The notes under the pieces are model-generated. The model searched no databases and was not told the origin of the DNA. It saw nothing but the letters and a program-made list of their open reading frames with translations. Source: Fimicolochytrium jonesii (Eukaryota). From it: a stretch of 64,000 bases of DNA. This document shows, in pieces, positions 6,789 through 44,933 of this stretch; the first letter of the stretch is position 1; the number at the start of each line of letters is the position of its first letter. The stretch is from the NCBI RefSeq assembly GCF_025526975.1, contig NW_026515675.1, positions 372,001-436,000 of the forward strand, given 5' to 3'. The position numbers and the translations under genes were made by a program.

Positions 6789-7218
6789 GGTTGTGTGGGT
6801 TTCTATTTGTGAGTTTGTTGGGTGGTTCTGAAGCAGCTGACGATGTAGCGGAAAGTCTCAGCAGTGGCCAGCAGGTGAGGCTGCTGAGGACGATGCAAGG
6901 AGTGTCAGGCAATGCAAATGCAATGCGTTCATACTGAACGCGACGACCCTTGTTCTGTTCTTCTCATGAGTCTCATGTTCTTCTCAGGCTCTCCTCCTCC
7001 TCCTCCGGCCTCCTCCCTCCTCTTCTTTCCTTCGACAGAGACGGCATCCCTTCTTCTTCGCTATTGCTCAGCTTCGGCTCGCTCGCTCCCAGGTCGACCT
7101 TTTGTTTAGGCACCGTGGCTCCCCGGCCCAGCCAAGCTTCATAGCCTGGGCGCGCTGGCCGACACGCCGTCCGGACTACCTACATAGATACAGTAGAAAT
7201 AGAAAGACGGTTATCAGC

Positions 7219-18000: not shown

Positions 18001-19214
18001 GCCGTTGTCCTTGAGAGCCCTGAAGGCGAGAGCGCCATCCCTGGTCTTGATTGTGCATTCTGCACTCGAAAACTCGACTTGTGCTCCGTTCTCAGTCAGC
18101 TGGGCTACTGAGATGAGGTTCTTTTCGAGTTTGGGAACAAACCAGACGTTTCGAAGGGTGCCAGCGTGCTCCCCTTGTGTTCTAATCGAGATGGAGCCTG
18201 TTCCGATGGCTAGGACTGACCGGTTATCAGCTAGCTGGACCTGGATCTCAGTTTCCAGCGTCTTCTAGTCCTGGAGCCATTCCCTGACATGTGTCATGTG
18301 TGAGGAGGCTCCTGAATCGATAATCCAGCACTCTGGGTTGATTTTCGTGCGTTTCATAGCTGCCATGAAGAGGAACCCGGTTCCCTGGCTGGCCTGGTGT
18401 GGTTCGGCTGGATTTGCATTGTTGGCTTGAGCTAGCTCTCGTTTGAGCTTCTTGCACTCGTTCTTCCAGTGCCCTTCAATACCACAGTGGTGGCACTTTC
18501 CCTTCTTCCTGGCGAACCTGGCTGAACCCCCAGCCTCCTGCTGGTGTCCCCCGTCCCCAACAAAGGCGTTTCGAGTCGATCTGACTGGTTTTGAGTTCTC
18601 CTTGCGCCTAGCTTCTTCATTCAGAAGTCTGGCCGTCAAGAACTCCATGTCTAAGTCGTCTGCCCTGCTTTCGAGGCTTGTGATGACTTGTTCGTAGCTG
18701 TTTGGTAACCTGTATATCAAGGTCGTCATGATATCGTCTTCGGGTACTGGTGCGCCGCTAGCCTCCAGCTGTTGTGCGAGCTGTCTGACTTTGTTGATGT
18801 GGTTTGTGATCGAGTCAGACTTGTTCATAGTGATGGTAAGGAACTTTCGACGTAGGAAGAGCTTGCTGGCGAGCCCCTTTTGTTTGTGCACCTCAGCTAG
18901 CTTAGACCAGGCTTCCCAAGCCGTCTGAGCTGTATGCACATGCATAAGCTGCGTGTCGTTCAGACTGAGGCAGATGTATGCCAAAGCCCTCTTGTCCTTC
19001 CTCTCCATCGACTCCTCCTCCTCCCCGTCAGCCCCCTTTCCCTGCGACGAGCTTGCTGTAGCCGTAGCTCCTTCCTTCTCCTTCTTCCCAACTTCCATTG
19101 CCACCCAAAGTCCCTTTGCCTTCAACATCATCATCATCCTAAACTTCCATAGATGGTAGTTCTCCCTGTGAACTTATCCACCATAAGTTTCGAAGTCTCT
19201 GAGTCTCCAGCCAT
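15075..19214 (-). pseudogene. Copia gag-pol, broken by stops and frameshifts
   Basis: Fragments 18265-19137, 16879-17991, 16327-16788, 15899-16141 and 15075-15770 carry consecutive Copia domains. There is a 1-bp loss just after the gag start and a TAG at 18265. Confidence 0.9.
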
Positions 19215-19475
19215 TGTGTGTTCGAGCTAAAGTTGTCTGTTTCGGGTGTGTGGACGCGTTTTGGATGACGCTGTATTGTTGGACGCGTTTTGAGTGTCAA
19301 GTAGTGCGTATCTTTTCGAGTTGAGCACTTTGGCGCGTTTTTCGGTCGGAAACTGGTGATTTTGGAGGGATATGTGGAGTGTAGGGCGTAGGAAGCGTCC
19401 GTAGGGGGTTGGGAACGTCTTGAATGGGATTGGCGAAGACGGTTTTAGTGATGATAAAGCTCAGGGCTCATAACC

Positions 19476-20085
19476 TATTGAAACCTTAGCTGATATAGGT
19501 GTATCTGAGAGGTCCCTAAGACTGGGTTGCCGATGACTGAGGGATGTAGCTGCCCAAAGGGCAGTGTTGTGATGTAGAAGACAGTAGTGTGGCTAGAGTA
19601 GTGCGATAGAAAGTAGTGTATTGAAGAGGATAAAGTGAAGAGAGGGGATGGGCAACAGGTCTTCCTTTTATACAAATCTGGGGCTTCTTTCTTGGGGATT
19701 TAGCTATGTGCTGGGGCGTCCAAAGCACCTTTTGAGACCCCCTCAGAACGCCCAAGGCGTCTCTGAGTGCCGCAGTTAAGGTTGGTAAGGTTTTGCCAAG
19801 TCTGTGTAGCCTGCTGATGCCCTCATGGACGTCTGCCAAGTCCGCGGAGCCCGCGGAAGGTGCTGCAGGCTTCCACAAGCCCAATAAAGTCCATTCTAGC
19901 TACTACAACCCAATCACAGCTCCATACGGGCACTACTGACCGCCATGAGCTCTAAGAACATCATGAAAGCGCAGTGCTGACGCCTGGATGTCTGGGAACT
20001 GGTCCAGACATCTTCAGAGCCTTCCAAGACGCGTCCTAAGTCTTGCAGAGCCTTCTAAGTGCCGCATCTTGGTGCTATCTCAATA
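19476..20085 (-). repeat. Copia 5' LTR
   Basis: TATTG...CAATA termini; followed on the minus strand by the PBS ending at 19475. Confidence 0.93.
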
Positions 20086-20381
20086 CAAAGCTCTGTTGTT
20101 CAGAGTCAATGCCTATGTGTACCTCCGGGCATACAACCACTGAGTCTCCAGGAGTGATCACTTCCTGCTTACTCATTATGGACGGCGGCCGTAAATGCAT
20201 TTACCCTATGCGGATGTCGTTTACCATCAAGGGGTCATGGTAACACTCGTTTTGTGTAGCACGATGCAATCCCTCCACAGCTTTGACTTATGTCCAACAA
20301 TATCGTGAATGAGAACTTCTCTGCTCAATTGCAGCGATATCCGATGTTTTTCTTGAACAGAAGGTCCCATCTGGCTACAGA

Positions 20382-21849
20382 TCATTCATGGCTTTCAGCC
20401 AACTGTGCACTCTTGCATTGCAGAGCCTCAGTTCCCTTGGAGCGCTTCCACTTTCGCTTAATTGTAATGGATTCTACTTCACCAAGGACCAAGATGAAGT
20501 CGTCCAATGCAGCGCAGTCTTTCACTCGCTCGTGCGTTTCCCATGTAGTCTGCTCAGGTGGCCAACCAACCCAGTGAACGAGATACTGAGGTTTTCCATG
20601 GAGCAACCTAGTAGTATTCTTTGTCGCCTTTGACTTGGATGGGCATTGGGTTAGAGTCATCTACATTGTCGATGCGCATTGGATCTAGAGTCGCCTCGTG
20701 CCATGGCTTCAAGATATCCGTCTGGAAGACCGGGTATAAAGCGCCCATTAAAGCTGGCAGCTCCAACTCGTATGTTCCCGGGTGTGGTCCTTCCTTCTTC
20801 ACGATGAAGGGTCCAAGCCAGCTCTGTCTGAACTGGAGTGGCTTCTTGTTGAAAGCAGGGATTGTTATCCCGTCGCTGTGACGTTCACGATCGTGATACT
20901 TCGCTTGTTTGTCCTGGGCTTCCTGCAGTCTCTGATGCACTATGAGTTCAATGGATCAGTATGCCTCAGCACGCTTCTCCATCTGTACAATGAGCTCACG
21001 CCATGACTTATGCAAGAATGGGATCTACATATCGTCCATACGTTGCAACACCTTTGCATCAACTTGCCAATGCATCGGTGCCTGCGGAATTCTACCCAGA
21101 TCAACCTCGAAAGGGCAGTATCCAGTGCTGTTCTGCATACGGTTGTAGGCAAACTCCAACAACGGCAGTTTGTCAACCCAATCGTCTCCCGTTACATCAA
21201 GGTATGGTTTAAGCTTCCTCTTCAAGATAGGGAGACACCGTTCGCCCTTTCCGTCCGTCTGTTGGTGTCGTGCCGTGCTCAAGCTCTGCTTAGAGCCCAA
21301 CAACAATTGAAACACCTTCCAGAACTCTGCCAGGTAGCGTGGATCTTGATCTCCGACAATCACAGCTACAGTACCTGTATGGCGCTATGCTTGACGGAAG
21401 TAAAGCTGGGCCAACTCCTCAGCAGTTATTGGGGGTGTTGCAGGTATAAAGTACGCGTGCGATGACAGATAGTTGATGAAGACAATAGTACTGTTGTAGA
21501 ACGCATCACTATGCACCTTCCCCCCCCCCACGACCGTGTTATTGGCATCAAGACAGGATCCATACCAATCATGTGCCAGCATCGGTCGGGAATTGGGAGC
21601 AAACGAAGTAAGCCAACACGCTTACCTGTCGGCAAGCTTGCAATACAGTTCCTCGTAAAGCAGCTGGCACGTAAAACTTATCATGATACAGTAAACAATC
21701 ATGCTCATCGATTGAAAAACGTCGATCGAATGTAGACTGCTGTTCCTTTGGCTGTGACAACGCATTCTTCTGAGAAGCAAAGTACTCATCAGCCTCCAAG
21801 GTTTATACCCAATCCTCAAGCGTAACATTCCCCAAAAGAATATACTTGA
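20382..21849 (-). pseudogene. Degenerate Gypsy A integrase and chromodomain (left copy of the inverted duplication)
   Basis: Motifs HQQTDGKGER, LPLLEFAYN, WLGPF and QYLVHWVGWPPEQTTWE. Reverse complement of 43170-44637. Confidence 0.85.
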
Positions 21850-22443
21850 TGTTATGGACGACGCGTCCATACCATGCGCTTACCTCATGACAGCATCCCA
21901 ACAGTCAGTCAATGTCAATTCCCTGTCAAAACCTGACATCTGCCAAACCTCGCAGCCGCACGCAGCCGCGCTACCCCACACCTGCCACTGCCTTCATTTC
22001 TCCACGCAGCCGCACGTAGCCACACCTCCCAACACTCGGCGCTTACAAACCCTTCTCCATACTTCCCCACGTACCCGCCCACAGCCTCAGCGTAGCCACC
22101 CCATCCCCAGTCTTCTGTTTCCATACTTCCCCACGTACCCGCCCACAGCCTCAGCGTAGCCACCCCATCCCCAGTCTTCTGTTTCTATGCTTCCCCACCC
22201 TTGGCGCTTCTCTTGGCTTCCCTCTCATTCCGTACCCTTCTGCTTCCCCACGCTTCCCCAGCCTTCCCAGAAAAACATAAATAGCCGCCTCCCCTGAGCT
22301 CCCCACTTCCTGATCCCCCAGCAGATCAACACCAGTTCTTCCTAGTCTTGTTCTAGTTCTTGTTTCGGTCTGAATACCATTACCTGTCAACAACCTGCAC
22401 CACAAGTTGCCTCTATTTCCATCGGCTCCGCCCTTTCATAACA
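21850..22443 (+). repeat. Lone LTR of the Tf1-like Gypsy family B, with an internal 64-bp tandem duplication
   Basis: TGTTATG...CATAACA termini; reverse complement of 42640-43169. Unit 22057-22120 is repeated at 22121-22184. The flanks CTTGA and GTCAC do not match each other. Confidence 0.9.
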
Positions 22444-22560
22444 GTCACGCTGGGCATCTTCGATGACCCCTCAGACATGCTCCCGAATCGCGTGGCGTAG
22501 ACGAGATGGATAGCTTCACGATTTTTTTTTCTACAGGTAGCTTTCATAACAGAAGCTGCA

Positions 22561-23133
22561 ATGGAGGATCAAAAGGATACGCCAGTACAGAAGAACACAA
22601 ATCGGCCTCCTACTCCAGTTCCTGACGCAGACGATGGGATAAACAAAGTGCTTGACGCAACCATCAAGGAACGCCAGAAGAAGCCTAGAACAGCAGCTCA
22701 ACTGGAGGCTTTGAAGCGAGCGCAACAGAAACGCGCGGAGAACCTGCGGAAGCTCACCAAGATGAAAAAAGAGCAGGAAACGGAGGAGGCTAAGCGTCGC
22801 GAGTTAGAGGAGAAGGAAGCTGAGAAGGAACGAGCAAGGAAGATCATCGAGAAGTACGAGCGAGAAAAGGAGAAAGCCAAATTGAAAGCCAAGGAAGAGA
22901 GGGCCGCTAGGAAGGCGGAGCGGCATCAAATGGCAGGTGTGGAGCCAAAACAAACAGCAGCCAAGAAGAAGCCAATCGCGGCGGCACAACCCCAACAACG
23001 CGCGGCGAGTCCAGAGCTGCCGGATGATCTGGCCTACAGTAGCGAGGATGAAGCCACGACCGTCTCGGTTCCAACAGCTCAATCAATTCCAGTTGACGAG
23101 TTCATGGGGATCTTCGGGATGCGCTGGAGGTAA
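22561..23133 (+). CDS. Viral hypothetical K/E-rich coiled-coil protein (190 aa)
   Basis: Clean ORF with KKPRTAAQLEALKRAQQKRAENL followed by a charged helix; lies directly upstream of the MCP. Confidence 0.7.
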   Translation: MEDQKDTPVQKNTNRPPTPVPDADDGINKVLDATIKERQKKPRTAAQLEALKRAQQKRAENLRKLTKMKKEQETEEAKRRELEEKEAEKERARKIIEKYEREKEKAKLKAKEERAARKAERHQMAGVEPKQTAAKKKPIAAAQPQQRAASPELPDDLAYSSEDEATTVSVPTAQSIPVDEFMGIFGMRWR

Positions 23134-23207
23134 GAGTTGCAACCGTCGACTGTTCTTTTTTTTTCTTAGACAGAAAGCAAGACAGCAGGACGGCGCTAAA
23201 CATCAGC

Positions 23208-24509
23208 ATGAGCACGAACCCGGTCGTCCCGGCAAACTGGCAATATGCGTCTCGCCAGTTCTCGATGCATAGCGACGCCCTGAGTGAAAACATCGCCATC
23301 TATCGTCCGATCAAAGAAAACTTCGATTCGCGAACGAGCGCCAACAGTTTCAAAATAGTGATTGACAGTAGCTCGTCGTTCCTGCGGCCCCAAAGGTCAT
23401 ACCTGAGTGGGACCGTCTCCCTTTTCAACGCCGATGGGATGGCTCTGAAGACGGCCACTGTGTCCGACATTGGCGCAATGGGGTGCTTCAGATCAGCTTC
23501 TATTCGAATTGGCGGGAAGCTTGTAGATGAGATCAACGATTTTCCTTTGTTCTTGACTGACCTGTACCAATTCGTTGACAAGGAAAGGCGAAAGTATCTA
23601 GCGTACCATGAAGGCGCTGGCAATGCAAACGTGTTCAAGAATGACAATGGCTCGTTTACTTTTAAGCTCCACCTTCAGTTTGGGAGCATGAGGCCCCTGA
23701 ACGGGCAACCGTTGCCACTGTGCGTCTTGCCTAACCAAGCTTGTGAGCTGTCTTTGACTCTCAACACCCCCCAAAGCGCGTTCACAGATGCTCCTGCGGG
23801 TTCCTACTTCATCGTGAGCAACCTCCGCTACGTGGCCCAGCTTGTCACCCCAAGCAGCGAATATCTGAGCACCCTCTGGCGTGGCATTCAATCGGGCAAA
23901 TATTTGGAGATGGACTTCGTGTCTGTTAACCAACTTTCGAGCGTTTGCTCGGGAGCAAGTCAGAACAACTTTATTCTCCCCTTGTCCAACTCCCGTGTCA
24001 TCGGTCTCACCCACCGTTGGCGGGATGACAACACTTTTGCGACGACTACGGGAGATAAGTCGCGGATCTACACCACAGCTAACTTGAAGTCGTGGAGATA
24101 CCAGATTGGCCAGTACCGATTGCCGCTCACTGAGGACTTCGACGTAAGCGATTCAGTCATGATTGGGGCCCTCTCACTCAGCGAGAACACGTCCTATTAC
24201 TCGGAGGACATTGATCTAGACAAGTTCTACACCGATCGATTTATCATGCGGTACAGCTGGCAGAGTGGGGACGAAGATACCGAGTCATCGCTTAACCTTG
24301 TCGGCTCTGATGGTAACCTCCGCGTAATCACTACGCACGCGTTACCGGCGCCAAGCACGGCCGTGTCGTTGCTCATCGGGAAAAACCTAAGAAGGGTGTC
24401 ATACCTCCCCAGCTTAGGCAATGGGTTCTGGCCCAACAGGCTGCAGCACGGCGCAAAGGGCGATGAAAGTCCTCACGACGCGAGAAGTTGTGGCCACGTT
24501 TATCGATAA
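23208..24509 (+). CDS. Probable double-jelly-roll major capsid protein (PLV-type), C-terminus probably truncated near 24374
   Basis: Beta-rich pattern FKIVI..SFLRPQRSYL...GAMGCFRSASIRIGGKLVDEI...LPL..ELSLTL...YFIVSNLRYVAQLV...WRYQIGQYRLP matches the order of motifs I recognise in PLV/Polinton MCPs. Not confirmed by HMM. Confidence 0.7.
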   Translation: MSTNPVVPANWQYASRQFSMHSDALSENIAIYRPIKENFDSRTSANSFKIVIDSSSSFLRPQRSYLSGTVSLFNADGMALKTATVSDIGAMGCFRSASIRIGGKLVDEINDFPLFLTDLYQFVDKERRKYLAYHEGAGNANVFKNDNGSFTFKLHLQFGSMRPLNGQPLPLCVLPNQACELSLTLNTPQSAFTDAPAGSYFIVSNLRYVAQLVTPSSEYLSTLWRGIQSGKYLEMDFVSVNQLSSVCSGASQNNFILPLSNSRVIGLTHRWRDDNTFATTTGDKSRIYTTANLKSWRYQIGQYRLPLTEDFDVSDSVMIGALSLSENTSYYSEDIDLDKFYTDRFIMRYSWQSGDEDTESSLNLVGSDGNLRVITTHALPAPSTAVSLLIGKNLRRVSYLPSLGNGFWPNRLQHGAKGDESPHDARSCGHVYR

Positions 24510-24585
24510 AATCAACCTCGTCGGCACCACCATGAAAGCATGGTGGCGCAAAGCGAGAAGCAAACAAGATTCATATTTCACATAG
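24463..24585 (+). CDS. Putative 40-aa viral micro-ORF
   Basis: MKVLTTREVVATFIDKINLVGTTMKAWWRKARSKQDSYFT*. Its ATG overlaps the TGA of an upstream basic frame (ATGA) and it ends 5 bp from the convergent gene. Confidence 0.4.
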   Translation: MKVLTTREVVATFIDKINLVGTTMKAWWRKARSKQDSYFT

Positions 24586-24590
24586 ACACA

Positions 24591-26144
24591 TTACTTACCT
24601 TTCCTCGTCGAGGTCTGTATGTATCCAGGGTCGTAACTCAACTTTTCTGGCGCTTGAGCTGTTCTCGCAGACCGCTTCGTTGCAGGGGCCTTGCCTTTCC
24701 CCTTGCCCTTTGTAGCTTTCCGTAGCGGCACCGCGGGAGTGTCTTCGTTCGCCTCCACCGTTGGCTCTGGCCCGAAAACTTGGGTCTGCGTGGGATTAGG
24801 CGACCATCTTAGTCCGCTGGGACCAGGAGCAGAAGGCTGCGGTTCGGGAGAGAACTGAGGCGCTACGTCGGGTGAGATAGACATAGGCGAAGCCGAGTTC
24901 CCGCTTGTATGGCCATAGCGTTCCGGCGACGAGTTTAGGGAGCTCTGGCCAAAGATAGAATCGAAGGAAGGAAGGGATGGGGTTGGGGAACCTCTCGGTT
25001 GCCACTGCGTTTGGATCGGAGGTGGTACTGGACGTGTAGAAGCGGAGGCTGGAGTGGCAGAAGGTGAGTATTGCGTTCCCATGTCGGCGACCTCTTGAGT
25101 CCTCTGTTTCTTTAGAGTCTCAATCAAGGTTCGCATAGCCGCTATCTCGGTGATAGCCACCGCAGAAATCGTCTCAACCTGCTTCACGAGACGCAACATC
25201 TCGTCCGGACTGATTGTCGCCGGAAGGCTGCTTTCTTGGAAGCCCATCGACACGAGGATGTTGCGGAATGTGCCCATCGTAGCCGCGGATATATTCCCGA
25301 GCTGAGCCTCTTGGCCGCGAAGCTGCTGCTGGAGGGTTTCGTTTCCAAAACGAAGCTGATCCATGAACGTCTGGAAGCGCCCCCCGTTTGCAAAGATGAG
25401 ATCCAGAGTCGTCCGATCAAGGTCAGGAAGATCGGTTGCTGATGCAACGGAGCGCATGTCGCGGACCGCGTGCTTTGGAGGAGGGAGAACCGGGCTCGTC
25501 TGTGTACCGAAGGTCACACTGGAGACCTTTCCGAGCCGTCCCACCTCGTCGGTCAAGCTTTCGCCGTCATTCCGTTTCGTGACGACTGGGTTGGAACCGA
25601 GGATAGGCTTTCCTGCGTTGCTGTTCGCGTTCTCGGGCAGATGCGCGTTGTCTCCACGCCGAACGTTGCTGGTCACATCCCCCATGAATTGGTTCTGTTG
25701 AGTTCGAACCCAGCCCGGCTGATGAAAGATGGTTGTGGAACCGTCAGCCCCCGTCTGGGATGCCACGGATCTAGGTAGGGCGATGGTTCTGCCTCGACGC
25801 GGGAAGAGATTATTGGCATCGAGCTCGTCAAAGTAGGCTTGCTTTGCTCGCTCCCGTTCCACCGCGTGAAGCGCATCAACGGCGTCCCGAGCGACTTTAC
25901 TCTGGTAAGGAGCTGCCCGAAGCGCGATTTGTTCTTTGATGGCCGGGCGCCTGTCAAAGACGCCTTTGGCAACTCCCTTTCCTGGGACATGGAATCCTGT
26001 GTGGAAGAGCCTGTTCTACGTCTCGCCAGGTCTACCGCGAATGTATGCGTATTGTCTCGCATGGATGTTGAGGATTGGCTGATTTGGGTAAGTGAAAGCG
26101 CCAGCGCTTGGCAGGCTAGCGTTCCTGTCGTCGTACTCAACCAT
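24591..26144 (-). pseudogene. Viral hypothetical protein (~517 aa) with one in-frame TAG
   Basis: ATG at 26144 (MVEYDDRN...) is in frame with the 423-aa ORF 24591-25862; the only interruption is TAG at 26018-26016. Central helical region, Pro/Ser-rich stretch and basic C-terminus. Confidence 0.65.
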
Positions 26145-26213
26145 CCCTGGTTTAATTTTTCTTCTATAACCTTGATCAAGAAGAAAAGAAAACGCAGGCC
26201 GCTTGCAGCACCG

Positions 26214-26510
26214 ATGGGGTTCTTTGACAAAGCACGAAGCAAAGCGAACACTTTCTTTTCGAAAGTCCCAGGTCACATTCAGAAGGCTCGGGGATTCCTC
26301 GATCAAGCGGTCTCGGGCGTCAGGACCGGCCACAAGCTCTTAACTCATGTCCGCCAGGGAATCGAAACCAATGATATCTTCGACGGCAAGGTGAAAGAAG
26401 CTTCACGTAAGGTAGGCTCCTTTGCTGATCTAGGCTTGAAAAAAGTTGACGCCTACCACAAAGGAGGCGATCAATTCCTCGGGCATCTGCAGAACATTCC
26501 TCTGGCCTGA
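26214..26510 (+). CDS. Small amphipathic viral protein (98 aa), candidate membrane-active virion protein
   Basis: MGFFDKARSKANTFFSKVPGHIQKARGFLDQAVSG...; Gly2 followed by basic amphipathic helices. Confidence 0.6.
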   Translation: MGFFDKARSKANTFFSKVPGHIQKARGFLDQAVSGVRTGHKLLTHVRQGIETNDIFDGKVKEASRKVGSFADLGLKKVDAYHKGGDQFLGHLQNIPLA

Positions 26511-26577
26511 GCAGATCTCATATCGCTCTTTTTTCCATCGCTTGTCATTAATCTAGGAATCAACCGCTTCCTTCGAG

Positions 26578-29500
26578 ATGAACATCAACTCTCGAACGAG
26601 CAGCGGCATAAGGACGCTGGATAGGCTGAACCTGGTAGCGCCGACCGTTAGCAGTTCAATCAAAGCTGCTGGCGACAATGTCTCCATGACGGGGTTCGAC
26701 TCAGCCGCGTTTCAGGCTCTATCAAACGAGAATGGCCCTCTTGAAGTGAATCGTGTAGAGGCCACCGAGCCGCTGGAATCGAAGACCGAAGCCGGCCTGG
26801 CAACCGTCAGCCTCGTTCATGATGAGACCCTCCAAGTCACTGATGGTAAACTTGGCACAACTCCCGTGCCAAAAGTTGAGGTCATCGCGCCTCTAGATGA
26901 GACGGACAACCGCCTTACACTGAAATGGACGGATCCCTTAACGGTCACGGATGAGGGCCTGACGCTCTCGTATGACCAAGATACCTTGAAGGTCAATGAT
27001 GGGGAGCTCTCCGTAGTCTTCCCTGCCCCGGAAACACTTCAGCCTCCTCTGATTCGAGACAGGGATGGCATCGAATTGCGGCACGATTCTACGCTCGTTG
27101 TAACGGCGAATGGAGACTTGTCCGTCCCAAAGGAACCGCTAAAGCAACCCTTAACGCGAGACGGGTCAGGCGTAGGGTTGAAATTGAATACGGATGACTT
27201 CGCCGTGGACGCCACTGGCGCGTTGGCCATCGTCCCAACAAACTATGAAGCTCCTCTGCATGAATCTGCCACGGCAGACAAGACCGTGTCCTTGCACACG
27301 GATGACAGTCCTCACGTCATCGGGGACGCTCTCAGCGTCGTACCTGAAGCATTATCAGCTCCCTTGACGTGGGAGGATGGGACACTTACGGTGCGTCTAG
27401 GGAAGGGTCTGAAGGTCAATGATGATGAAGAGCTGGAGACCAACATTGAGCAGGTCGTCGTTGGGCGCGGGGCCATCAGTAGTGATAAAGCTGGAAGCCT
27501 GGCGCTCGAAGATGTGCTGTCAATGGGCTACTCGTCCATCTCTGAGCTATTCAACGATGACGTTGATGTTGATGCCAGTGTTATTCGGCTCAAGACCTCC
27601 GATGATCTACAACAGACGGGAAACAAACTCGCTATACGATCCCAGGGACTAGGCAGAGTCCCGTTCTACAATGGGATCTCAGGGGTTCACCTATAATGAG
27701 ACTCTGAACGAGCTCCATGCGCCGCACATATACGTCAACTCTAACTTTTCACCTGCCGACACAGAAGTGCCCACAAAAGCGTATGTGGAACAGCTATACC
27801 AAAGTGATGCGGGCTCTCCCATCAACATCTCCGGGGTGAGCAACGGACGCAGAACCATCGACCTGCGAACAGACGCTAACCTAGCGGTTGAGAATCAAGT
27901 CCTCAGCGTCAATCCGTCTCCTTTGGTGGACAACAAAGGGGTCCGAGTGATTGACGGTAAGATCGGTATCGGACTCACGTTCCAGCCGGGAAACGGCGGT
28001 CTCAAGATAGAGAACCAGAACCAGGTCAAACTCGCACCTAATGTCAGCGGAGCCATCACTTTTGACGGCAATAACACGTTTTCGGAGAAGCTCACCGCCA
28101 GCCAGGGTGTAAAGAGGGTCGAGAATGATCTCCAGCTGGACCTACAAGCGGGAGACTCGACAGTCACTGTGAGCGGCAACACGGTGAAGGGAAACTACCA
28201 GGCTAACACCGGTGTCCGCCTCACAGGGAACACCATCTCAGGAGCGTACACAGCGGGAAACAACGTTAGCATAAGCGGCGCTACAATCAGCTGTACTTAC
28301 CAGCCCGAACCCGAAACTCCTACAGTCATCACTGGCGCACTTCCCATCATCGTCACAGGAGCTGACAAGGAATACAATATCTCTAAACAGCCGCTGGTAA
28401 TATCTGGAGGAGCAGGGATCGTGGTGGCGGGTTCTGAGGGTACCGGTTACGTAATCAGCAGCGTTCAGCCTTATAAGCAGAAGAAGCAGGACTCTGACCC
28501 GGAGGAGAACATGGAGGAGTCTGATCCGTTTGCAGAGAGTGACCCGTTGACCGCTTCTGGATCCTCTCCCGTTGTCAGCGTGACTGGCCCCCTCGGGTTT
28601 CTTCTCAGCAGTGGTGCGTCGCTCATAGGAGGGCCTTTGGCCAGTGGTGTGGCTGTTGCGCCTACCTCGGCCTTCGGCGCTCTTGGGGCTCTCGCGGGAG
28701 CTGTTGGGGGAACAACCATTGTAGGCGGCTTTGCATCTGTTTTTGGACGCGAACGAAAGAATAAGACAGACGCTAGCGGGAATCCGATCATAGACGCCAA
28801 CAACAACCCGGTGCTAGAAGACGGCTCGCAAGTTATCATTTCGATGCTGCCGAAACCCGACGACACCTCCTGTGATGTTACAAGGTTATTATTTGACACT
28901 CCCAGTTCTTGTTCTTACCGCTCAGTGCTCTTTGAGGTCCCTCAACAAGCCGTCAATCTCGACCTTCTCAAACAGTACCACATCGCGGCCATCAAGCCTC
29001 AGATAGATCTCAAGTTCGACAAAACGGGAAGTCTTCCCTATGCTCAGCTTAGCGGCGTACCGGACCTTTCCGTCTACGAGAAGAGGCTCACTTTCGCTCC
29101 TTCCCCTGTGCTGACGCGGGCAGCGGACACGGTGACATTCGACTCGACCAAGATCACCTCTCTCGGAACATTGGCCGGTCTGACACTTAGTGGAGCTTTA
29201 AGTGGGACGACAGCAACGTTCTCTGGGGCAATATCTTCACCTACCCTCAGCAACTATCTCCTCTCAGCCACAGCTGCCACCTCCTACCAACCGCTGAATG
29301 CTAAGCTTTCGACGATCGCTGCAAGTACAGCCGCGGCTTCGTACTTTTTGGTGGGAGACGGCGGCGCATATGCCTCGACCAGCCCTCTGAACGCCAGGTC
29401 AGCCCTTGGACTTGGCTCTTTGTCTTTCAAATCATCGCTGGACTTAGCAGCGGACGTCGGGACAAGTGTCTTGCCGGAGCCACGGATAGATGCATTGATA

Positions 29501-32500
29501 GCTAGGAAGACCTATGTGGATTCCCTGGTGGTTACCGCCGGCGCTGGCCTTACGAAGGCGGGCACAGCACTCAGTGTCAACGACGCGCAGCCTGGCATCA
29601 CCAGCCTTGGGACCCTGTCTAGTCTGACGACAAACGGTCTTTCCGTGCTCGGTAACAGTCGGACGCAGGGTTGCATTGTGCAGGGGTCCCAGCCGGCGCT
29701 GAATCTATCGAGTATGGCAACCGGAGGGGCTAGCTGGCAGTTATATTCGACCGTAGCCGGTGATTCACTGGGTCCCGGGTTCCTTTCGCTCTTGAATACA
29801 ACTGGAGGCGGGTCTACGCCGGTCCTCAACGTCAATGGGAGTGATCTGACACTCACTATCGCCAGGGCTCTAACAGTGAGTGGAGCGGTGACTATTCAGG
29901 CAACTCCAACAGCGGCTACTCACGCTGCATCAAAGGGATACGTTGACGGATTGATCAACACCACACAGACGGGAGCGCAACCGCTCAATGGCAAGCTTAG
30001 CACTATATCCAATGCAACTGCCGCTGCTAGCTACTTCCTTGTAGGAGATGGGACAAACTTCATCTCGACCAGTCCTGTCGCTTCTAGAAGTGCGCTCGGG
30101 CTTGGTTCTTTGGCCTTGAAGAGCATTGTCACGCTCACATCAGATGTGACTGGTATCTTGCCTCTTGCGAACCTAGATACACAGGTAAGTACCAAGGCAT
30201 ATGTTGATGCTCAGACCGTCACAGCTGGGAATAATCTGTCAAAGGCCGGGACTGTGATATCTCTCAATCCAGATGTACGGTTGAACAGTCTACGTTTAAC
30301 TTCCACCGACTTGAACTCGTCTGCGCTTCTTGTCAACGGTATCGGTCAGTTTGGACAGGTCCAAGCGGCTGACTTGATTGTCTCTGGAAACAGCTACCTG
30401 CAAGATGTGACGGTTAATGCTGGTTTGAACGTAATTGGTAGTTCCAGCCTAAGCGGACTTAATGTCACAAGTGTATTGAATGTCAGCAGGACAGCCACCG
30501 TGTCAACACCAACATCGGGGGCACATGCGGCGACGAAAGCCTACGTTGATGGTCTTTACACTGCTGGGACGGGCCTGACACGTGCTGGAAACGCCTTCAG
30601 CGTGAATGTGGCTCAGCCTCAGATCACATCAGTTGGCACATTATCGTCGCTGGCTGTAAGCGGAGCGGTGACTGTCGCGGGAACAGCCAATTCGGCCGTG
30701 CCGACAGCGGGGGCCATGCAAGTTGCTGGTGGGCTAGGGGTGGGGAAAAATCTAGTTGTTGCGGGGCAGAGCAACATCATTGGCTATGATTCAAACGTAG
30801 ATGCATATTCATCGTTCAATGTCCCTTTGACTGTCTGTACACAGGTGTCTAATGCAGCGGTGGGGGCTCCGACCCCTGTTCTGCAACTTGCTCAGGCTGG
30901 GACTCCCGCTTCCAAGGTCGCGGGATCTGCGACTTTCAACATGTCAAGGTATGCACTTGCCGGTGTACAGCCCAAAACACAATTGGATCTCTTCCTGAGC
31001 GATACCGACTGGGGGGTGGGAAAGACCGCGCTAACCCTGCGTGGCGACGGAACCGTTCTGATCCCTTCGAACGCTCTAAGTGTGTCTGTACCTGTCACGA
31101 GCAGCTACACAACAGGATACTTCTTGCAGCCGTCGCTCACCGCTGGGTCTCTCACTCAGTTCATCCATGGTGTCGGCATGAGTACATATAATTCAGCGTG
31201 CTTTGACTTCAACTACGCAGGAGCAGGTAACTCCGGTAACTATCTCGGACTGGGTCACTACGGCGCGAACGGATTACTCCGCGTCTATGGGAACGGGGTT
31301 GTCCAATGTACCTCTAGCGAGGACTCAAGTGGACCCGGTACTGGTGCTTTGCAAGTGGTAGGAGGGGTGGGTGTCTCCAAAAGTCTATTTGCTGGAGGAA
31401 CATCGGCGACGTCAAGTCATACATTGCAACTCAACTCCACAACATCCGATGTTCTCAAGATCCAGAGTCTTTCGGCTTTGGGGTTTTCCACTATTGGCTT
31501 CTTGAACAACACGGGAACGGTAGTGGGCGCTTTTGGTTATGCTGGAACCGGTACAAGTGCTCCCAATGCTGGAAACTTTTTCCTCTATTCCGGGTCAGCG
31601 GCAAACTTTGTGATCAATAGCAATGTTCCAAGTGTGCAGATTCTATCCACGGCAGACTCCTCATCTTCGACATCAGGTGCATTTCAAGTCAAAGGTGGAG
31701 CCGGGTTTGCAGGCAATGTTAACGTAGGAAAGGACTTGACCGTTGCGGGGACACTTTACAGCAATATCACCTCAGCAGGACCGATTGTTGCATCGCATCT
31801 TGGAGCACCTAACTTAGCAGCCGGAAGTTTCACGACTTTACAGCTCGGCACAGGGGCATCTACAAACAATATGGCAAGGTTGTACTTCAACTACGCCGGC
31901 CCAGGTCTTGCAGCAAACACGCTGGGGTTGGGGCTCTGGAACTCTCCACAAGGTCTTGTCGTTGATGGAACGGGGAAGGTTGCTATCCCAACCGGTAACT
32001 TGCAAGTTAACGGAAACCTCCCTATCATCAGCGGAAACGACACAATCGGACCACTGTCAATCGACCCCAATTTCACATCCAATAACTATGTTAGGGTCTG
32101 GGACGATTTACGTGTTGTTGGAGACTTCTCTGTATACAACTCCGCTGAAGCCGTTGCTTGGCTCAAAGTTGCGTCGAGCGATGGTAGCGTTGTACTGAAA
32201 GGGTCCTCGGATACCTCGGCAGTTGGGTCGGGCGCTTTGCAGGTATCCGGGGGCGCATCTGTGGCAAAATCTCTGTATGTTGGGCCAAATCTCAATGTAG
32301 CCGGCGACCTCCTCACTCCCGCCTTGACGTCTACAAGCACTCTAGTTGTGCATCCCACGACACCGGCAACAAACTACTCCTGGAACGGATACAGCGTGAC
32401 TTACTCCTCGGAGTATACCTACAACAACTCAAACGGAATAGATGGGCTTACGGGACATGGTTGTGACTGTTACATGTATGCATCCTACGCATCGAGATTG

Positions 32501-33406
32501 CGGTGGGCAACAAGTAGCACTTCAACAGGCACACTCAGCCTCGATTCAACAGCGCAAAGTCTGCATTTCTCCCTCCTCCGGCTCCCGACCGCAATTGCCA
32601 TGGCTCAAGTCAAACTAACTGCGTATCTGCCTGATGGCGTGTTGATGCCAACCACGTTCACTGTAGTGGCGCGGACAAGCGAATCGTCGGTCAAGACCAT
32701 CGCCACGTTCTCCAACATCAGCGCGTCTAGTTGGTTGATGGACGGGAATTCGTTTTCGTTCTCAAATACCACTGCCTATCCCGTGTGGGGGATTTCGTGG
32801 CAGTACGCAAATCAGACAACAGCAGGAGGGGTCGCCATACGAGGGATACAGTGGAATCAATTGATTCCAAAGGCCGCCTTGGTGAATGCTCAGGCGGATA
32901 CGCTGAATGCGTCTACTGTGACTGTATCAGGCACGACCACCACTAATAGCCTGGTTGCGAACTCAGCCCTCTGTAAAGGTGACTTGACTTGTAGCACGAA
33001 CATGTATTGCAACACCCTTGTGCAGAGCTTTGTCGCCATCAAAGACTGGTTGGCGGATGTCCTTGTGCCTAATGCCAATGGTTACACCAACACTAGCCCC
33101 AGTCCTATCGGGTGGATCCCAAAAATGTCGGCATGCGTTGCTCACTGCATGTTCTCCGCCGCTCCAAATGTTATGAACGCTCGAATCACATGTGGTGTAC
33201 AAATCCTCGATGGAGCTACGGTTGTGGCAGCGAAGAGTTTCTCAATCTATGGGACCATAAATAATTACAACGTTCAGACCCCCTTCTGCTTCCAGCTGCC
33301 CATTCTCTTCAACAGCACCTCGACCGGGCTCACCGTAAAGCTCAGCATTCCGACCTCGATGACGTTCAGTAATTTGTACGTTTTGTTCTACACACAGGTC
33401 TTCTAG
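26578..33406 (+). CDS. Giant fibre/spike protein (~2270 aa), split by a 1-nt frameshift at the G run 27682-27685
   Basis: The 372-aa and 1911-aa ORFs join as YNGISG|FTYNETLNEL if one G is removed. Contains adenovirus-shaft-like repeats (APL..LTL...L.V....L.V), T/SKAYVD-type repeats, four GA(L/M/F)QVxGG repeats and a discoidin-like C-terminal module. Confidence 0.78.
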
Positions 33407-33851
33407 TCGCTAAATGGTACACGTGTCGCGGCGAAGTCTACTGATAAGTCGCCGATAGTTTCGTGTGAGGTGCGTGTGTGTGTGCCGTGGGATAGGGCCG
33501 TGATCATTAGCTGTCGTGGCGCGGTCGTACCATAGCGGCGGCGTTTGGATGATGGAGCCGACGGTTTGGGTTCCAGCCCCGGGTTTCGGGATGTAGACGC
33601 GGCGGTCCCGTAGGGTTGTGCAGCAGGTTTGGGTGCGCTTTTATCGATAACGGTGCATCGCCAAAACGTCTTCGCACCAGGGGCGTAACTGGGGCGTACT
33701 AGATACATGCAGAATGTAATAGATACGTTTGACGTAACAGATATGCTACAGGGGTGTAACTGGGACGTAATGATTATATAGTACATAATAAGCGTAATAC
33801 AGCACAGTTACATAAACAATACGCCACAGTTACATAACCAGAAAATACCAG

Positions 33852-33895
33852 TGTCGTAGTGCAGGTGTAATTTAAATTACACCTGCACTACGACA
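33852..33895. repeat. Perfect 44-bp palindrome (candidate hairpin telomere or resolution site)
   Basis: TGTCGTAGTGCAGGTGTAATTT|AAATTACACCTGCACTACGACA, 22-bp arms with no spacer. The palindrome is certain; the function is inferred. Confidence 0.95.
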
Positions 33896-34653
33896 ATCGG
33901 GTACGTGGAAAGAAGTTCAAGTCTTTGTTGGACATCAAAGATGCATATCACCGCCTCTTGGTTTGCAAAGCTGATAGAGACAAAACAGCGTTTCAAACGC
34001 GGTTTGGTCATTTTGAGTACTTGGTTATGCCGTTTGGATTCCCAAATGCACTGGCAACATTTCACCGGTTAACCAATAAGATGTTGGGCAAGATGTATGA
34101 TGCGTATGTCATATCTTACCTGGACGATATCTTGATCTTCTCGGAAACAGCCAAGGAGCATATCGCTCATGCCGAGAGTGTTTTGGCTGTTCTTGCCGAG
34201 CATAAACTTTATGTCAAGCCATGCAAGTGCAAATGGATGCAGAAAGAGCTTGAATTCTGCGGCCACATCCTGGGGGAGGATACAATGGCCATTACTCCCT
34301 TGAATTTAAAGTTTGAAAGTTTGCACGTCCTACCAAACAGAAAGAGGTTGACAAAGTACCTGAGTCAATACGTCGATCGTTATGCATACATTGCGTATCC
34401 ATTGACAGAGCTACAGTTGGGCAATAGGCCATGGCACTGGGGCGATGTTGAGGAAACAGCTTTTGTTAAGCTGAAGGAAGCTATTATTACAGCTCCTACA
34501 CTCGTGTCTTACGACCCAAAGCGAGATTTATACATGTTTACGGATGCATCAGGTTTTTGCAATAGGAGGATGGCTCGCGCAGCCGGCGGATCCAGTGGAG
34601 CATTACCCATCACCGTTGCCTACCTCTGTGAAGGGATTTAAAAATCTGCCACC
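33896..34653 (+). pseudogene. Gypsy A reverse transcriptase (C-terminal part) and start of RNase H
   Basis: [34 protein letters not shown]. Confidence 0.88.
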
Positions 34654-40800: not shown

Positions 40801-42639
40801 TCTTGGTATTCTTCAGGAATGATGGCCTTCGGATCTTTTGGAGGAGTGGTCGCCAGGGCTTGGGAATCTGACTTGGTCGGATTGGCGTAGGCAATGAATG
40901 CCTGGTCATGCCTTGCCGCCACACGGAAAGCTGGGGCGCTGATAAACGATACGTGGATCGGTGTGGGTGCTGGGTCCAGTGTGTTGGGTGTCTGGGCTAG
41001 TGAGACTGAAATCTCGTCTTGATGGATACGGATCAGAGGTTCAGGGGTTTTTGAGGGTTTCGGGCTAGGTTCTGTTGGCAGGGCATCCCAGGAGGCGTAT
41101 TGTCCAAAACCGCAATGGCAGCGGACGCAAAGAGTGCGAGTCTTCCAGTGTAGCTCCACATCATGGAGCTCAAACCAGGGAAGCCCCAGGATGATTGGCG
41201 CATGCGGGGAACATGTCACATGGAATACCACCTCCTCAAAATGGTCGTTGACCCACATACCCAAAGGTTGGGTGTGATGGGTAATGGAGCCCGCATGGCT
41301 GGGACGTCCGTCAACCAGTGCAAGCGCAATGGGTCCTCCTTCTTGACAAGTGGGATGCGGTGCTTGCGGGCATAACTTTTGTCGATGAAGCACGACATCG
41401 CACCGGTGTCGAGTAGTGCTGAAAGCTGAACTGGAGCTCGCTGGGCCGATATCTGCAGGGTAACAGGGTACTCGAATGGTGAGGATGGGCCCAAAGTCCG
41501 CATGGGTGAGGGTATCTCAGATAGGAGATTGACATTGTTGGTGGTCAGGAGAAGGGTGTTGCTGGAGATGCCAGGATCGGAGCAAGGTTTTGTGGCTTCT
41601 CCCTTGGCAGTACTTGCGTGGTGAGAAGGCCCAGGACAGGTATTGCCCAGCTGCTCGGCCTTTACTGCAGCTGGACTTGGGCAAAATCCTGGATGGGTGC
41701 AGGTTCCTTAACCGCGACATTCGCCGTGCGTATCTTGTTCGGGCAGAGTTTGGCTATGTGGCCAGGTTTACCACAATAGAGGCAAAGTTTGTTTGTGATG
41801 CGGTGTTGGCGCTCTAGCGGTGTGAGGGGTCCTCACGGACGAGCAGCGTCAATGATCATAGGGTCGTCTGGGCGGTTGTCGGGGCCCATGAGGGTGGGGC
41901 TAGTGGTAACTGGCACATAGGGCTGTCGGTTCCTGCTTCGCTCTAGACGGCGCTCAAACAATCGGTTGTCACATTGGATGGCCTGTTCCATCACGGTGTC
42001 GATTGAGGCGGTAGGGGGCATCGTGAGCATTAAGTCCTTGACGTCTTCTTTGAGGCCGCGACGGAAGGTGGCAATCAATGCCTGGTCATTCCACGACACA
42101 TCGCATTGCAGCTGTCGGAATTCAGCTACATACTCTGTTGCTGCACGGGTTTGTCGAAGGTTCTGGAGCTTGTTTTCGGATGTGCGGATCCTGTCGCTGT
42201 CTCCAGAGACTGCTTGCATTTGCTGGATGAAATCATCCAGGTTCGTAAGGGAATGATGGTCTTGTTCGACAAGGGGCGCCAGCCAGGCCTGGGCGGTGCC
42301 AGTGAGGTAGGTGCCAATAGTTCGTATCTTGGTCTGATCGTTGGGGTAGCGCCTGGGTTGGAGGGCGAACATGAGCCGGATCTGGTTGAGGAACCCACAG
42401 AACTTGCTTCGGGTGCCATCAAATTTGTCTGGGAGACTGATTTTGGGTTCGGGGGCGTGGGTGGCAGGGGCAGTGGTCTGGGTTTGCGCTAGTTCGGCTT
42501 GTAGGGTGGTATTCTGTGCTCGAAGTTCGTCAATCGCATTGCACATGGCTTGCCAGGCTTCGGCCGTGAGGGGAAGGGCGTCGGACATGGTGATTTGGCG
42601 TGGAGGTACAGCGGCGGGGGGTTGTTGAGCAGATCAAAC

Positions 42640-43169
42640 TGTTATGAATGGGCGGAGCCGATGGAAATAGAGGCGACTTGTGGTGCAGGTTGTTGACAGG
42701 TAATGGTATTCAGACCGAAACAAGAACTAGAACAAGACTAGGAAGAACTGGTGTTGATCTGCTGGGGGATCAGGAAGTGGGGAGCTCAGGGGAGGCGGCT
42801 ATTTATGTTTTTCTGGGAAGGCCGGGGAAGCGTGGGGAAGCAGAAGGGTACGGAATGAGAGGGAAGCCAAGAGAAGCGCCAAGGGTGGGGAAGCATAGAA
42901 ACAGAAGACTGGGGATGGGGTGGCTACGCTGAGGCTGTGGGCGGGTACATGGGGAAGTATGGAGAAGGGTTTGTAAGCGCCGAGTGTTGGGAGGTGTGGC
43001 TACGTGCGGCTGCGTGGAGAAATGAAGGCAGTGGCAGGTGTGGGGTAGCGCGGCTGCGTGCGGCTGCAAGGTTTGGCAGATGTCAGGTTTTGACAGGGAA
43101 TTGACATTGACTGACTGTTGGGATGCTGTCATGAGGTAAGCGCATGGTATGGACGCGTCGTCCATAACA
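42640..43169 (-). repeat. Gypsy B 5' LTR
   Basis: TGTTATG...CATAACA; lies upstream of the gag ATG at 42588. Confidence 0.93.
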
Positions 43170-43174
43170 TCAAG

Positions 43175-44637
43175 TATATTCTTTTGGGGAATGTTACGCT
43201 TGAGGATTGGATATAAACCTTGGAGGCTGATGAGTACTTTGCTTCTCAGAAGAATGCGTTGTCACAGCCAAAGGAACAGCAGTCTACATTCGATCGACGT
43301 TTTTCAATCGATGAGCATGATTGTTTACTGTATCACGATAAGTTCTACGTGCCAGCTGCTTTACGAGGAACTGTATTGCAAGCTTGCCGACAGGTAAGCG
43401 TGTTGGCTTACTTCGTTTGCTCCCAATTCCCGACCGATGCTGGCACATGATTGGTATGGATCCTGTCTTGATGCCAATAACACGGTCGTGGGGGGGGGGA
43501 AGGTGCATAGTGATGCGTTCTACAACAGTACTATTGTCTTCATCAACTATCTGTCATCGCACGCGTACTTTATACCTGCAACACCCCCAATAACTGCTGA
43601 GGAGTTGGCCCAGCTTTACTTCCGTCAAGCATAGCGCCATACAGGTACTGTAGCTGTGATTGTCGGAGATCAAGATCCACGCTACCTGGCAGAGTTCTGG
43701 AAGGTGTTTCAATTGTTGTTGGGCTCTAAGCAGAGCTTGAGCACGGCACGACACCAACAGACGGACGGAAAGGGCGAACGGTGTCTCCCTATCTTGAAGA
43801 GGAAGCTTAAACCATACCTTGATGTAACGGGAGACGATTGGGTTGACAAACTGCCGTTGTTGGAGTTTGCCTACAACCGTATGCAGAACAGCACTGGATA
43901 CTGCCCTTTCGAGGTTGATCTGGGTAGAATTCCGCAGGCACCGATGCATTGGCAAGTTGATGCAAAGGTGTTGCAACGTATGGACGATATGTAGATCCCA
44001 TTCTTGCATAAGTCACGACGTGAGCTCATTGTACAGATGGAGAAGCGTGCTGAGGCATACTGATCCATTGAACTCATAGTGCATCAGAGACTGCAGGAAG
44101 CCCAGGACAAACAAGCGAAGTATCACGATCGTGAACGTCACAGCGACGGGATAACAATCCCTGCTTTCAACAAGAAGCCGCTCAAGTTCAGACAGAGCTG
44201 GCTTGGACCCTTCATCGTGAAGAAGGAAGGACCACACCCGGAAACATACGAGTTAGAGCTGCCAGCTTCAATGGGCGCTTTATACCCGGTCTTCCAGACG
44301 GATATCTTGAAGCCATGGCACGAGGCGACTCTAGATCCAATGCGCATCGACAATGTAGATGACTCTAACCCAATGCCCATCCAAGTCAAAGGCGAGAAAG
44401 AATACTACTAGGTTGCTCCATGGAAAACCTCAGTATCTCGTTCAGTGGGTTGGTTGGCCACCTGAGCAGACTACATGGGAAACGCACGAGCGAGTGAAAG
44501 ACTGCGCTGCATTGGACGACTTCATCTTGGTCCTTGGTGAAGTAGAATCCATTACAATTAAGCGAAAGTTGAAGCGCTCCAAGGGAACTGAGGCTGTGCA
44601 ATGCAAGAGTGCACAGTTGGCTGAAAGCCATGAATGA
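43175..44637 (+). pseudogene. Degenerate Gypsy A integrase and chromodomain (right copy)
   Basis: Continues the RNase H at 36856-37285 across the B insertion; same motifs as 20382-21849. Confidence 0.85.
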
Positions 44638-44933
44638 TCTGTAGCCGGATGGGACCTTCTGTTCAAGAAAAACATCGGATATCGCTGCAATTGAGCAGAG
44701 AAGTTCTCATTCACGATATTGTTGGACATAAGTCAAAGCTGTGGAGGGATTGCATCGTGCTACACAAAACGAGTGTTACCATGACCCCTTCATGGTAAAC
44801 GACATCCGCATAGGGTAAATGCATTTACGGCCGCCATCCATAATGAGTAAGCAGGAAGTGATCACTCCTGGAGACTCAGTGGTTGTATGCCCGGAGGTAC
44901 ACATAGGCATTGACTCTGAACAACAGAGCTTTG

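Follow-up and report, generated by a model that had tools for sequence, protein, structure and literature searches.

Fibre proteins that resemble those of adenoviruses have already been reported for MELD viruses of chytrid fungi. In the accessible part of PMC8502044 (section 3.4), six Powellomyces MELD virus genomes are described with sequences resembling adenovirus vertex fibres. Here, a stretch of 64,000 nucleotides (nt) from Fimicolochytrium jonesii (contig NW_026515675.1, positions 372,001 to 436,000 of the forward strand), in the following called the window, was analysed. It contains a broken gene which very probably encoded the trimeric vertex fibre of a MELD or Polinton-like DNA virus, likely integrated in a chytrid of the Spizellomycetales and since decayed.

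The Powellomyces MELD fibres (DAC81691.1 and DAC81653.1) are homologous to the window fibre over the N-terminal 545–630 profile positions and share with it the N-terminal motif as well as the chytrid host group. They differ in being deposited at 562 and 1132 amino acids (aa), respectively, with a 90%-cluster mate of the first having 2428 aa. Furthermore, unlike these fibres, the window copy belongs to a separate, supported Fimicolochytrium clade, is frameshifted and is not accompanied by replication or packaging genes in the window. In the accessible text of 10.1101/2023.10.16.562556 the Powellomyces MELD genome is only mentioned, and that of PMC11161782 holds no passage on fiber, chytrid or Powellomyces.

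For Polinton-like viruses (PLVs) of cryptophytes and other protists, fibres of up to 3.9k aa have been described, in which PF06536 is fused to phage-like repeats and sugar-binding domains, and these long fibres were proposed to give independent host attachment (PMC12220804, accessible part). As far as described there, they mostly end in Peptidase_S74 and use laminin G or collagen. In contrast, the window fibre has no S74 match and ends in a CBM32-like domain followed by a domain of ~130 aa. The available part of PMC7805220 reports the S. punctatus group, a PLV integrated in a Spizellomycetales chytrid, whose environmental relatives were proposed to be fungal double-stranded DNA viruses. The window resembles this group in harboring an integrated PLV in a Spizellomycetales chytrid; the capsid protein of the window is not assigned to the group. 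PLVs in chytrid genomes are also the subject of 10.64898/2026.06.19.733378, and giant viruses of zoosporic fungi, which are possible helpers, that of PMC13533422, both as judged from their accessible parts. A publication on Spizellomycetales with an endogenous capsid was not found in the literature search.

In adenoviruses, a fibre peptide docks on the penton base (PMC3386624, accessible part). The likeness of the window fibre to the adenovirus fibre lies in shaft repeats scoring above the Pfam cut-off, in a predicted homotrimer and in a profile that retrieves knob-bearing fibres. Unlike the adenovirus fibre, it has neither a knob nor a recognisable tail motif, is ~4 times longer and devotes less than 10% of its chain to shaft repeats. 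The capsid protein encoded beside it has ~410 aa and is PBCV-1/PRD1-like, which is unlike the adenovirus hexon. With no knob and no hexon, the window fibre is not an adenovirus fibre, although its base would work like that of one; it belongs to the chytrid MELD/PLV fibre family.

The fibre gene and its adenovirus-type shaft

An earlier note, made from the letters of the window, had described a single chimeric fibre of ~2270 aa that takes ~60% of the surviving element. The span 26578-33406 consists instead of two open reading frames (ORFs) in different frames, encoding 372 and 1911 aa (Table 1). Together, they occupy 62% of the viral remnant, counted from the left long terminal repeat (LTR) to the stop codon, in agreement with the earlier estimate, and the ancestral unbroken fibre is reconstructed at ~2,280 aa. 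The chimeric build was supported as well, since the protein is a modular mosaic of an adenovirus-type shaft and other modules.

The repeats on which this description had been based were found again. The N-terminal ones are located at 26887, 27133-27145 and 27358. Five motifs of the type [TSR]K[AGST][YF]V[DE] lie at 27773, 29504, 29930, 30191 and 30533, and four GA[LMF]QVxGG units at 30710, 31343, 31676 and 32231. In shuffled sequences the means were 0.001 and 0.0005, respectively, and the observed counts were reached in none of 2000 shuffles. The same was seen for a loose PL...G-L-x-L pattern (five observed, shuffle mean 0.32, equalled in 0 of 2000). Since the search patterns were derived from the observed motifs, these shuffles show repetition and not family membership.

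Membership is indicated by profile searches. The 372-aa ORF matches PF06536 (Av_adeno_fibre) with 50.1 bits at a cut-off of 22.7 and PF00608 (Adeno_shaft) with 34.9 bits at a cut-off of 30, so the Adeno_shaft scan proposed earlier came out positive. The likeness to reovirus sigma1, named alongside that to adenovirus, found no support: no sigma1 or sigmaC family was matched by the window fibre in the Pfam scans, and Reo_sigmaC_M was matched in one of 27 long relatives. The register of the repeats was assigned by hand and gives ~11 of them at residues 100-291 of the 372-aa ORF, i.e. ~190 of the ~2,280 residues.

A four-member family profile retrieved 212 proteins at an expectation value (E) of ≤0.001 from 1.84 billion representatives, 150 of which were listed. 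Of those matches that cover the shaft only, 41 were scanned; an adenovirus shaft family is present in 40 and an adenovirus head domain in 22. Each of these 22 head-bearing adenovirus fibres also has a BLASTP match to the 372-aa ORF, with E between 2.6e-14 and 3.5e-4 (1e-3 for the best of 20 shuffles), which is not independent support, since they had been picked by the profile. Against the PDB, the top match of the family profile is an adenovirus 'Fiber' (7tau, E 1.5e-6), and the 372-aa ORF alone yields by sequence one weak match, the fibre 6itx (E 0.3).

Three copies of residues 60-300 were modelled together, and the shaft repeats are predicted to form a triple beta-spiral homotrimer, as the earlier note had expected of a trimeric fibre. 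The interface score ipSAE is 0.76 compared to 0.00 for the best of three controls, the contacts agree to at least 96% between runs and the model confidence (pLDDT) is at least 89. Among solved structures, 20 of 30 homo-pairs and 1 of 23 monomers attained the ipSAE mark used, a calibration that is only roughly valid for three copies and the alignment made here, and the pass may stem from the resemblance to solved adenovirus shafts.

The relatives of the fibre also reveal how the two ORFs belong together. Their matches extend to ~27690 in the first ORF and begin at ~27683 in the second, and in 48 of the 49 relatives matching both flanks, these are joined by a short linker in one chain; the lone exception is P0001, from which the segment is absent. 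At the junction, P0004-P0007 have six codons where the window copy has one base, a shortfall of ~17 nt. As 48 of 49 relatives read through the junction, the window copy appears to be broken by a frameshifting deletion near 27685, whereby the ~17 missing nt exclude a homopolymer slip and the continuity of the relatives excludes a conserved frameshift programme. Judged from its sequence, the fibre gene in the window is thus one gene broken by this deletion and the copy is unable to yield the full fibre protein by ordinary translation. The element is a dead, decayed viral remnant.

That the gene might still be functional, with the break being an assembly error or being bypassed by splicing or programmed frameshifting, is very improbable. 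In its favour, the 1911-aa part is free of stops across 5.7 kb and both ORF parts are 74–96% identical to P0004 in the aligned segments. However, a stop-free frame is also compatible with recent decay, and, besides the size of the deletion and the continuous relatives, the sole GT-AG pair seen across the break spans 25 nt and its removal would delete a conserved motif. Furthermore, the capsid gene has a truncation of its own, and the element has been cut on either side.

Distal modules, tip and a hydrophobic mid-fibre segment

The 1911-aa ORF is a mosaic rich in Gly, Ser, Thr and Ala without a credible Pfam match. Some of its blocks are missing from P0004, and the fibre tip is common to P0053, which is another copy than P0004. 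The last KAYVD module weakly matches phrog_2332 (E 9e-5) and, using the family profile, the PDB entry 6wv2 (E 2.7e-4). For the middle shaft, a search of the PDB by sequence gave no match, and in the ESM Atlas it scores 0.92 to unnamed clusters, with phage tail proteins as the nearest named ones (0.88–0.89, scores often reached by chance). The PHROG matches, hyaluronidase and the structural protein phrog_697, are short or compositional and are taken as hints only. A match to VbhA (E 0.0012) fell under the cut-off and was rejected.

Near the tip, residues ~1557-1735 of this ORF were modelled as a beta-sandwich, the core blocks of which reach pLDDT values of 63–87. Foldseek, by which the fold was assigned from this partial model, gave 30 matches at E≤0.001 (best E 1e-4), including CBM32, SUN, DOC and discoidin domains. 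The tip domain is therefore predicted to have a CBM32/discoidin-like fold, and sugar binding is putative. F5/8 type C was not matched by Pfam in the window copy and reaches E 0.11 in the homolog P0005; the best ESM Atlas score of the tip region, 0.81, is a lead only. The last 301 aa have no match at all in Pfam at E≤1, the adenovirus knob included.

The S74 trimer chaperone is typical of viral fibres. It is absent from the window fibre in the Pfam scans and present in 12 of 27 long relatives, compared to F5/8 type C in 8 and PF06536 (E≤0.001) in 13 of them. The Powellomyces relative P0025 carries at residues 2251-2422 a terminal papain-like domain (E 1.3e-5) and a CBM5/12 chitin-binding module (E 2.9e-4). 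This end may be a fusion created by annotation, and nothing else in the family points to domains directed at the wall. In the remnant itself, a chitinase was not seen.

An extra feature of the 1911-aa ORF lies in mid-fibre. Residues 292-359 form a run of 68 aa without D, E, K, R, N, Q or H (maximum in 2000 shuffles 59), with an acidic tract before it and a basic patch behind it. This three-part module, with an uncharged middle of 50–68 aa, is present in 12 of 36 long relatives and in none of 22 adenovirus fibres. The other 24 relatives fail the test, the thresholds of which were set after inspecting the data, and many of them show, at a comparable position, a hydrophobic run that is shorter. 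Across the carriers the best 19-residue hydropathy is 1.5–2.3, and the value of the window copy, 1.65, is marginal for a transmembrane helix. The module departs from the fibre pattern, and it might act on membranes as a peptide, serve as an anchor or provide a linker for cleavage. It is the one feature which was not found in print: no published account of a membrane-penetrating PLV fibre was found in a search that did not reach subscription journals and most supplements.

This module would be central if the gene encoded a polyprotein or a membrane-anchored entry protein rather than a simple external fibre. Here, cleavage at the basic patch or anchoring via the 68-aa segment would result in an N-terminal spike and a separate C-terminal fibre. 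The length of the uncharged run, the hydropathy of the carriers and the recurrence of the module among long relatives, with its absence from adenovirus fibres, speak for this. Against it stand the two thirds of the relatives failing the test, the marginal hydropathy of the window copy, a cleavage that is only putative and the post hoc thresholds. This explanation is very improbable, and a simple external fibre is preferred.

Relatives, viral context and borders of the remnant

The fibre family is linked to viruses by name. P0024 and P0027 (profile E 1.7e-143 and 2.8e-133) are the proteins named 'fiber' of Powellomyces chytrid fungus MELD virus 6 and 3, respectively. The named homologs of the fibre and of the capsid protein beside it originate from the chytrids Fimicolochytrium, Geranomyces, Gaertneriomyces, Powellomyces, Thoreauomyces, Spizellomyces and Phlyctochytrium arcticum, which belong to the Spizellomycetales. 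All 8 named sources among the 12 capsid homologs are chytrids. The likely chytrid host is thus read from the relatives of viral genes and not from a host gene. The nearest fibre is 87% identical and comes from Fimicolochytrium, and in the tree the window fibre groups with two Fimicolochytrium copies (support 100/99). This tree was built from a conserved segment of 125 aa with 32 rows (31 relatives hand-picked from the matches) and a midpoint root, and 10 of its 29 branches are supported. It intermixes fibres with S74 and F5/8 tips, is too weak to order events and gives no clue to which way an exchange with adenoviruses went. The 32 family members with 1000 aa or more have a median length of ~1700 aa and a maximum of 2644 aa. 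The ancestral fibre of ~2,280 aa, the great length of which the earlier note had stressed, is typical to high for the family and not exceptional.

The viral context expected for the fibre is given by a double jelly-roll major capsid protein gene upstream. Its homology stops near 24374 (aa ~390), ~15–20 residues short of intact relatives in the alignment and by tblastn, and its 12 homologs are 46–69% identical. The first jelly roll, the only one modelled with confidence, matches the capsid proteins of PBCV-1 and PRD1 (best E 8.7e-7); the capsid profile found no match in the PDB by sequence. The neighbouring 190-aa ORF matches the part of the Geranomyces protein P0012 directly upstream of its capsid domain (42% over 111 aa, E 3e-12, a score inflated by low complexity). 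In P0021 a capsid-like part is annotated as directly followed by the fibre, and for the capsid P0008 and the fibre P0022 (2362 aa) the longest contig has the same length, 13,029, so that the same contig can be assumed for both. An intact related locus was not confirmed in viral contigs (0/3, 0/13 and 0/48 pattern matches) or in metagenome contigs (0/19 and 0/218); due to this, the gene order in intact relatives is known only from the fused annotations P0012 and P0021.

A domesticated or cellular fungal adhesin reusing beta-spiral repeats is the least probable explanation, since the many relatives annotated as fungal hypothetical proteins on long contigs are outweighed by homology to named virus fibres, by a gene that is intronless as read here, adjoins a capsid gene and is broken in the window, and by Pfam scans in which no cellular adhesin family was matched. 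Of the two outcomes that the earlier note had named as fatal to a viral fibre, i.e. best matches to cellular adhesins in a non-viral context and no prediction of a spiral or trimer, neither was observed.

Several observations weigh against a viral vertex fibre. Of the 112 ORFs listed, 32 were scanned, and in none of these was a penton, packaging ATPase, replicase or viral integrase found, so that the location at the vertex is argued by analogy. The adenovirus tail motif is absent from the window fibre and from 9 of 9 relatives, a weak test, as the pattern fits only 9 of 22 adenovirus fibres. The tip model, built with 5 sequences, is of low confidence overall (mean pLDDT 45), and the fold it matches also occurs in SUN and DOC domains, which do not serve for sugar binding. 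Nevertheless, a trimeric vertex fibre of a MELD or Polinton-like virus remains very probable.

Table 1. Features of the viral remnant, in positions of the window
Feature	Position	Strand	Remarks
Gypsy/chromovirus LTR, left border of the remnant	21850..22443	+	Terminal part of the block 18856-22445
Lys/Glu-rich ORF, 190 aa	22561..23133	+	Viral, and conserved beside the capsid gene
Double jelly-roll major capsid protein gene	23208..24509	+	C-terminally truncated
Pro/Ser-rich stop-free frame, 474 codons	24591..26015	-	Basic C-terminus; probably a viral gene
Basic amphipathic ORF, 98 aa	26214..26510	+	Directly upstream of the fibre gene; candidate analogue of adenovirus protein VI
Fibre gene, 5' part	26578..27696	+	372 aa; likely capsid anchor (~60 conserved aa at the N-terminus), then the beta-spiral shaft and a conserved neck
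Triple beta-spiral repeats, adenovirus-type	26875..27450	+	~11 repeats of 15-20 aa; Pfam PF00608 and PF06536; predicted trimer
Fibre gene, 3' part	27671..33406	+	1911 aa without a stop; modular shaft rich in Gly, Ser, Thr and Ala, and domains of the tip
Frameshifting deletion	27683..27690	+	~17 nt fewer than in relatives
Acidic tract, 68-aa uncharged Gly/Ala-rich segment (28544-28747), basic patch	28472..28768	+	Candidate membrane-active module
Four KAYVD-type modules, three of them with TAGxxL units behind	29504..30650	+	Last one weakly matches the C-terminal part of phage hyaluronidase fibres
Four GAxQVxGG modules	30710..32254	+	Variable inserts between them; unnamed phage-like look-alikes only
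Predicted galactose-binding-domain-like domain (CBM32 / F5-8 type C / discoidin)	32339..32875	+	Structure model and Foldseek; shared with 4 relatives
Terminal domain, ~130 aa	33008..33403	+	Matches only P0053 and P0022; pLDDT <40
Putative LTR-like segment, 472 base pairs, right border	33424..33895	.	TG...CA ends; ends in a palindrome and abuts a mid-gene reverse transcriptase fragment

Between the capsid and fibre genes, further frames are present. Past the capsid break, 24376-24585 holds a 40-aa ORF and a basic 3' fragment that stops at 24466, which are probably remnants of small viral genes; they may resemble basic core proteins. The minus-strand frame has no Pfam or PHROG match, and its link to the N-terminus of P0025 was rejected (E 1.2). 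The 98-aa ORF has a hydrophobic moment of up to 0.57, a net positive charge and no match to a Pfam or PHROG family; it is a candidate for a membrane-lytic protein like adenovirus protein VI.

The remnant comprises ~11 kb, and both its ends abut LTR or LTR-like sequence. On the left, the block 18856-22445 is repeated at 42638-46163 as an inverted duplication of ~3.6 kb with 99% identity, which contains a copia LTR, a gypsy fragment and a gypsy LTR. The duplication ends exactly at the LTR end beside the remnant, which suggests that a recent LTR-mediated rearrangement removed the left part of the virus. On the right, no palindrome of the window is longer than the perfect one of 44 base pairs (bp) without a spacer at 33852-33895, which could represent an LTR end in inverted orientation, the scar of a rearrangement or a hairpin end that was replicated. 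When 22400-33500 and 33300-34000 were compared with themselves by BLAST for terminal inverted repeats or a target duplication, only the LTR end and the local palindrome were found, as expected for a remnant.

The rest of the window consists mostly of LTR retrotransposons together with TPR and Dicer genes. A gypsy/chromovirus element (37291-~43230) with two 98%-identical LTRs and a 5-bp target duplication is nested in an older gypsy element; this duplication belongs to it and not to the right flank of the LTR at 21850..22443. A 1892-aa single-ORF Dicer with helicase, dimerisation, PAZ and RNase III domains, apparently uninterrupted, is located at 7102-12780, ~10 kb from the remnant, and a 681-aa ORF without Pfam match at 58239-60284, just upstream of a gypsy gag.

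Meaning for the virus lineage and its hosts

In the intact ancestor, the conserved ~60 aa at the N-terminus would attach the fibre to the vertex of the capsid in the way the adenovirus tail docks on the penton base, a position on the particle that is proposed by analogy. The ~11 adenovirus-type repeats would form a triple beta-spiral stalk, consistent with the Pfam match and the predicted trimer. Exchangeable phage-like modules would lengthen this stalk to ~100–150 nm, as scaled from adenovirus fibre dimensions, and the CBM32/discoidin-like domain near the tip, a predicted fold with a putative ligand, would bind glycans of the host surface. A reach through a cell wall or zoospore coat, considered possible in the earlier note, is a putative role of the fibre. 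The modules would have been exchanged between fibres by recombination. Due to the frameshifted fibre and the truncated capsid, the real extracellular virion that had been claimed for this element does not follow from it; from intact relatives, we infer an extracellular stage for the lineage.

The window adds one decayed copy to a family known from chytrid MELD viruses. Beyond that, its analysis places the shaft in Pfam families, with adenovirus fibres being retrieved in return, predicts a trimer and a lectin-like tip, and finds full lengths of up to 2,644 aa in the family. Since the window copy is broken, it is a poor test case, and the intact relatives P0022, P0023, P0026 and P0166 are better suited.

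The family bears on the question whether fungi with a cell wall are infected by DNA viruses that have an extracellular stage and attach by themselves, and on the question where the adenovirus fibre shaft came from. It is conceivable, if rather doubtful, that the chytrid MELD/PLV fibres are combined attachment and entry machines, with a glycan-binding tip on a stalk of 100–150 nm, an adenovirus-type beta-spiral base and a built-in acidic, Gly-rich hydrophobic and basic module inserting into or breaching the host membrane, and that they represent the closest living non-adenoviral source of the adenovirus shaft. If true, the shaft fold in adenoviruses would originate from PLVs infecting fungi or protists.

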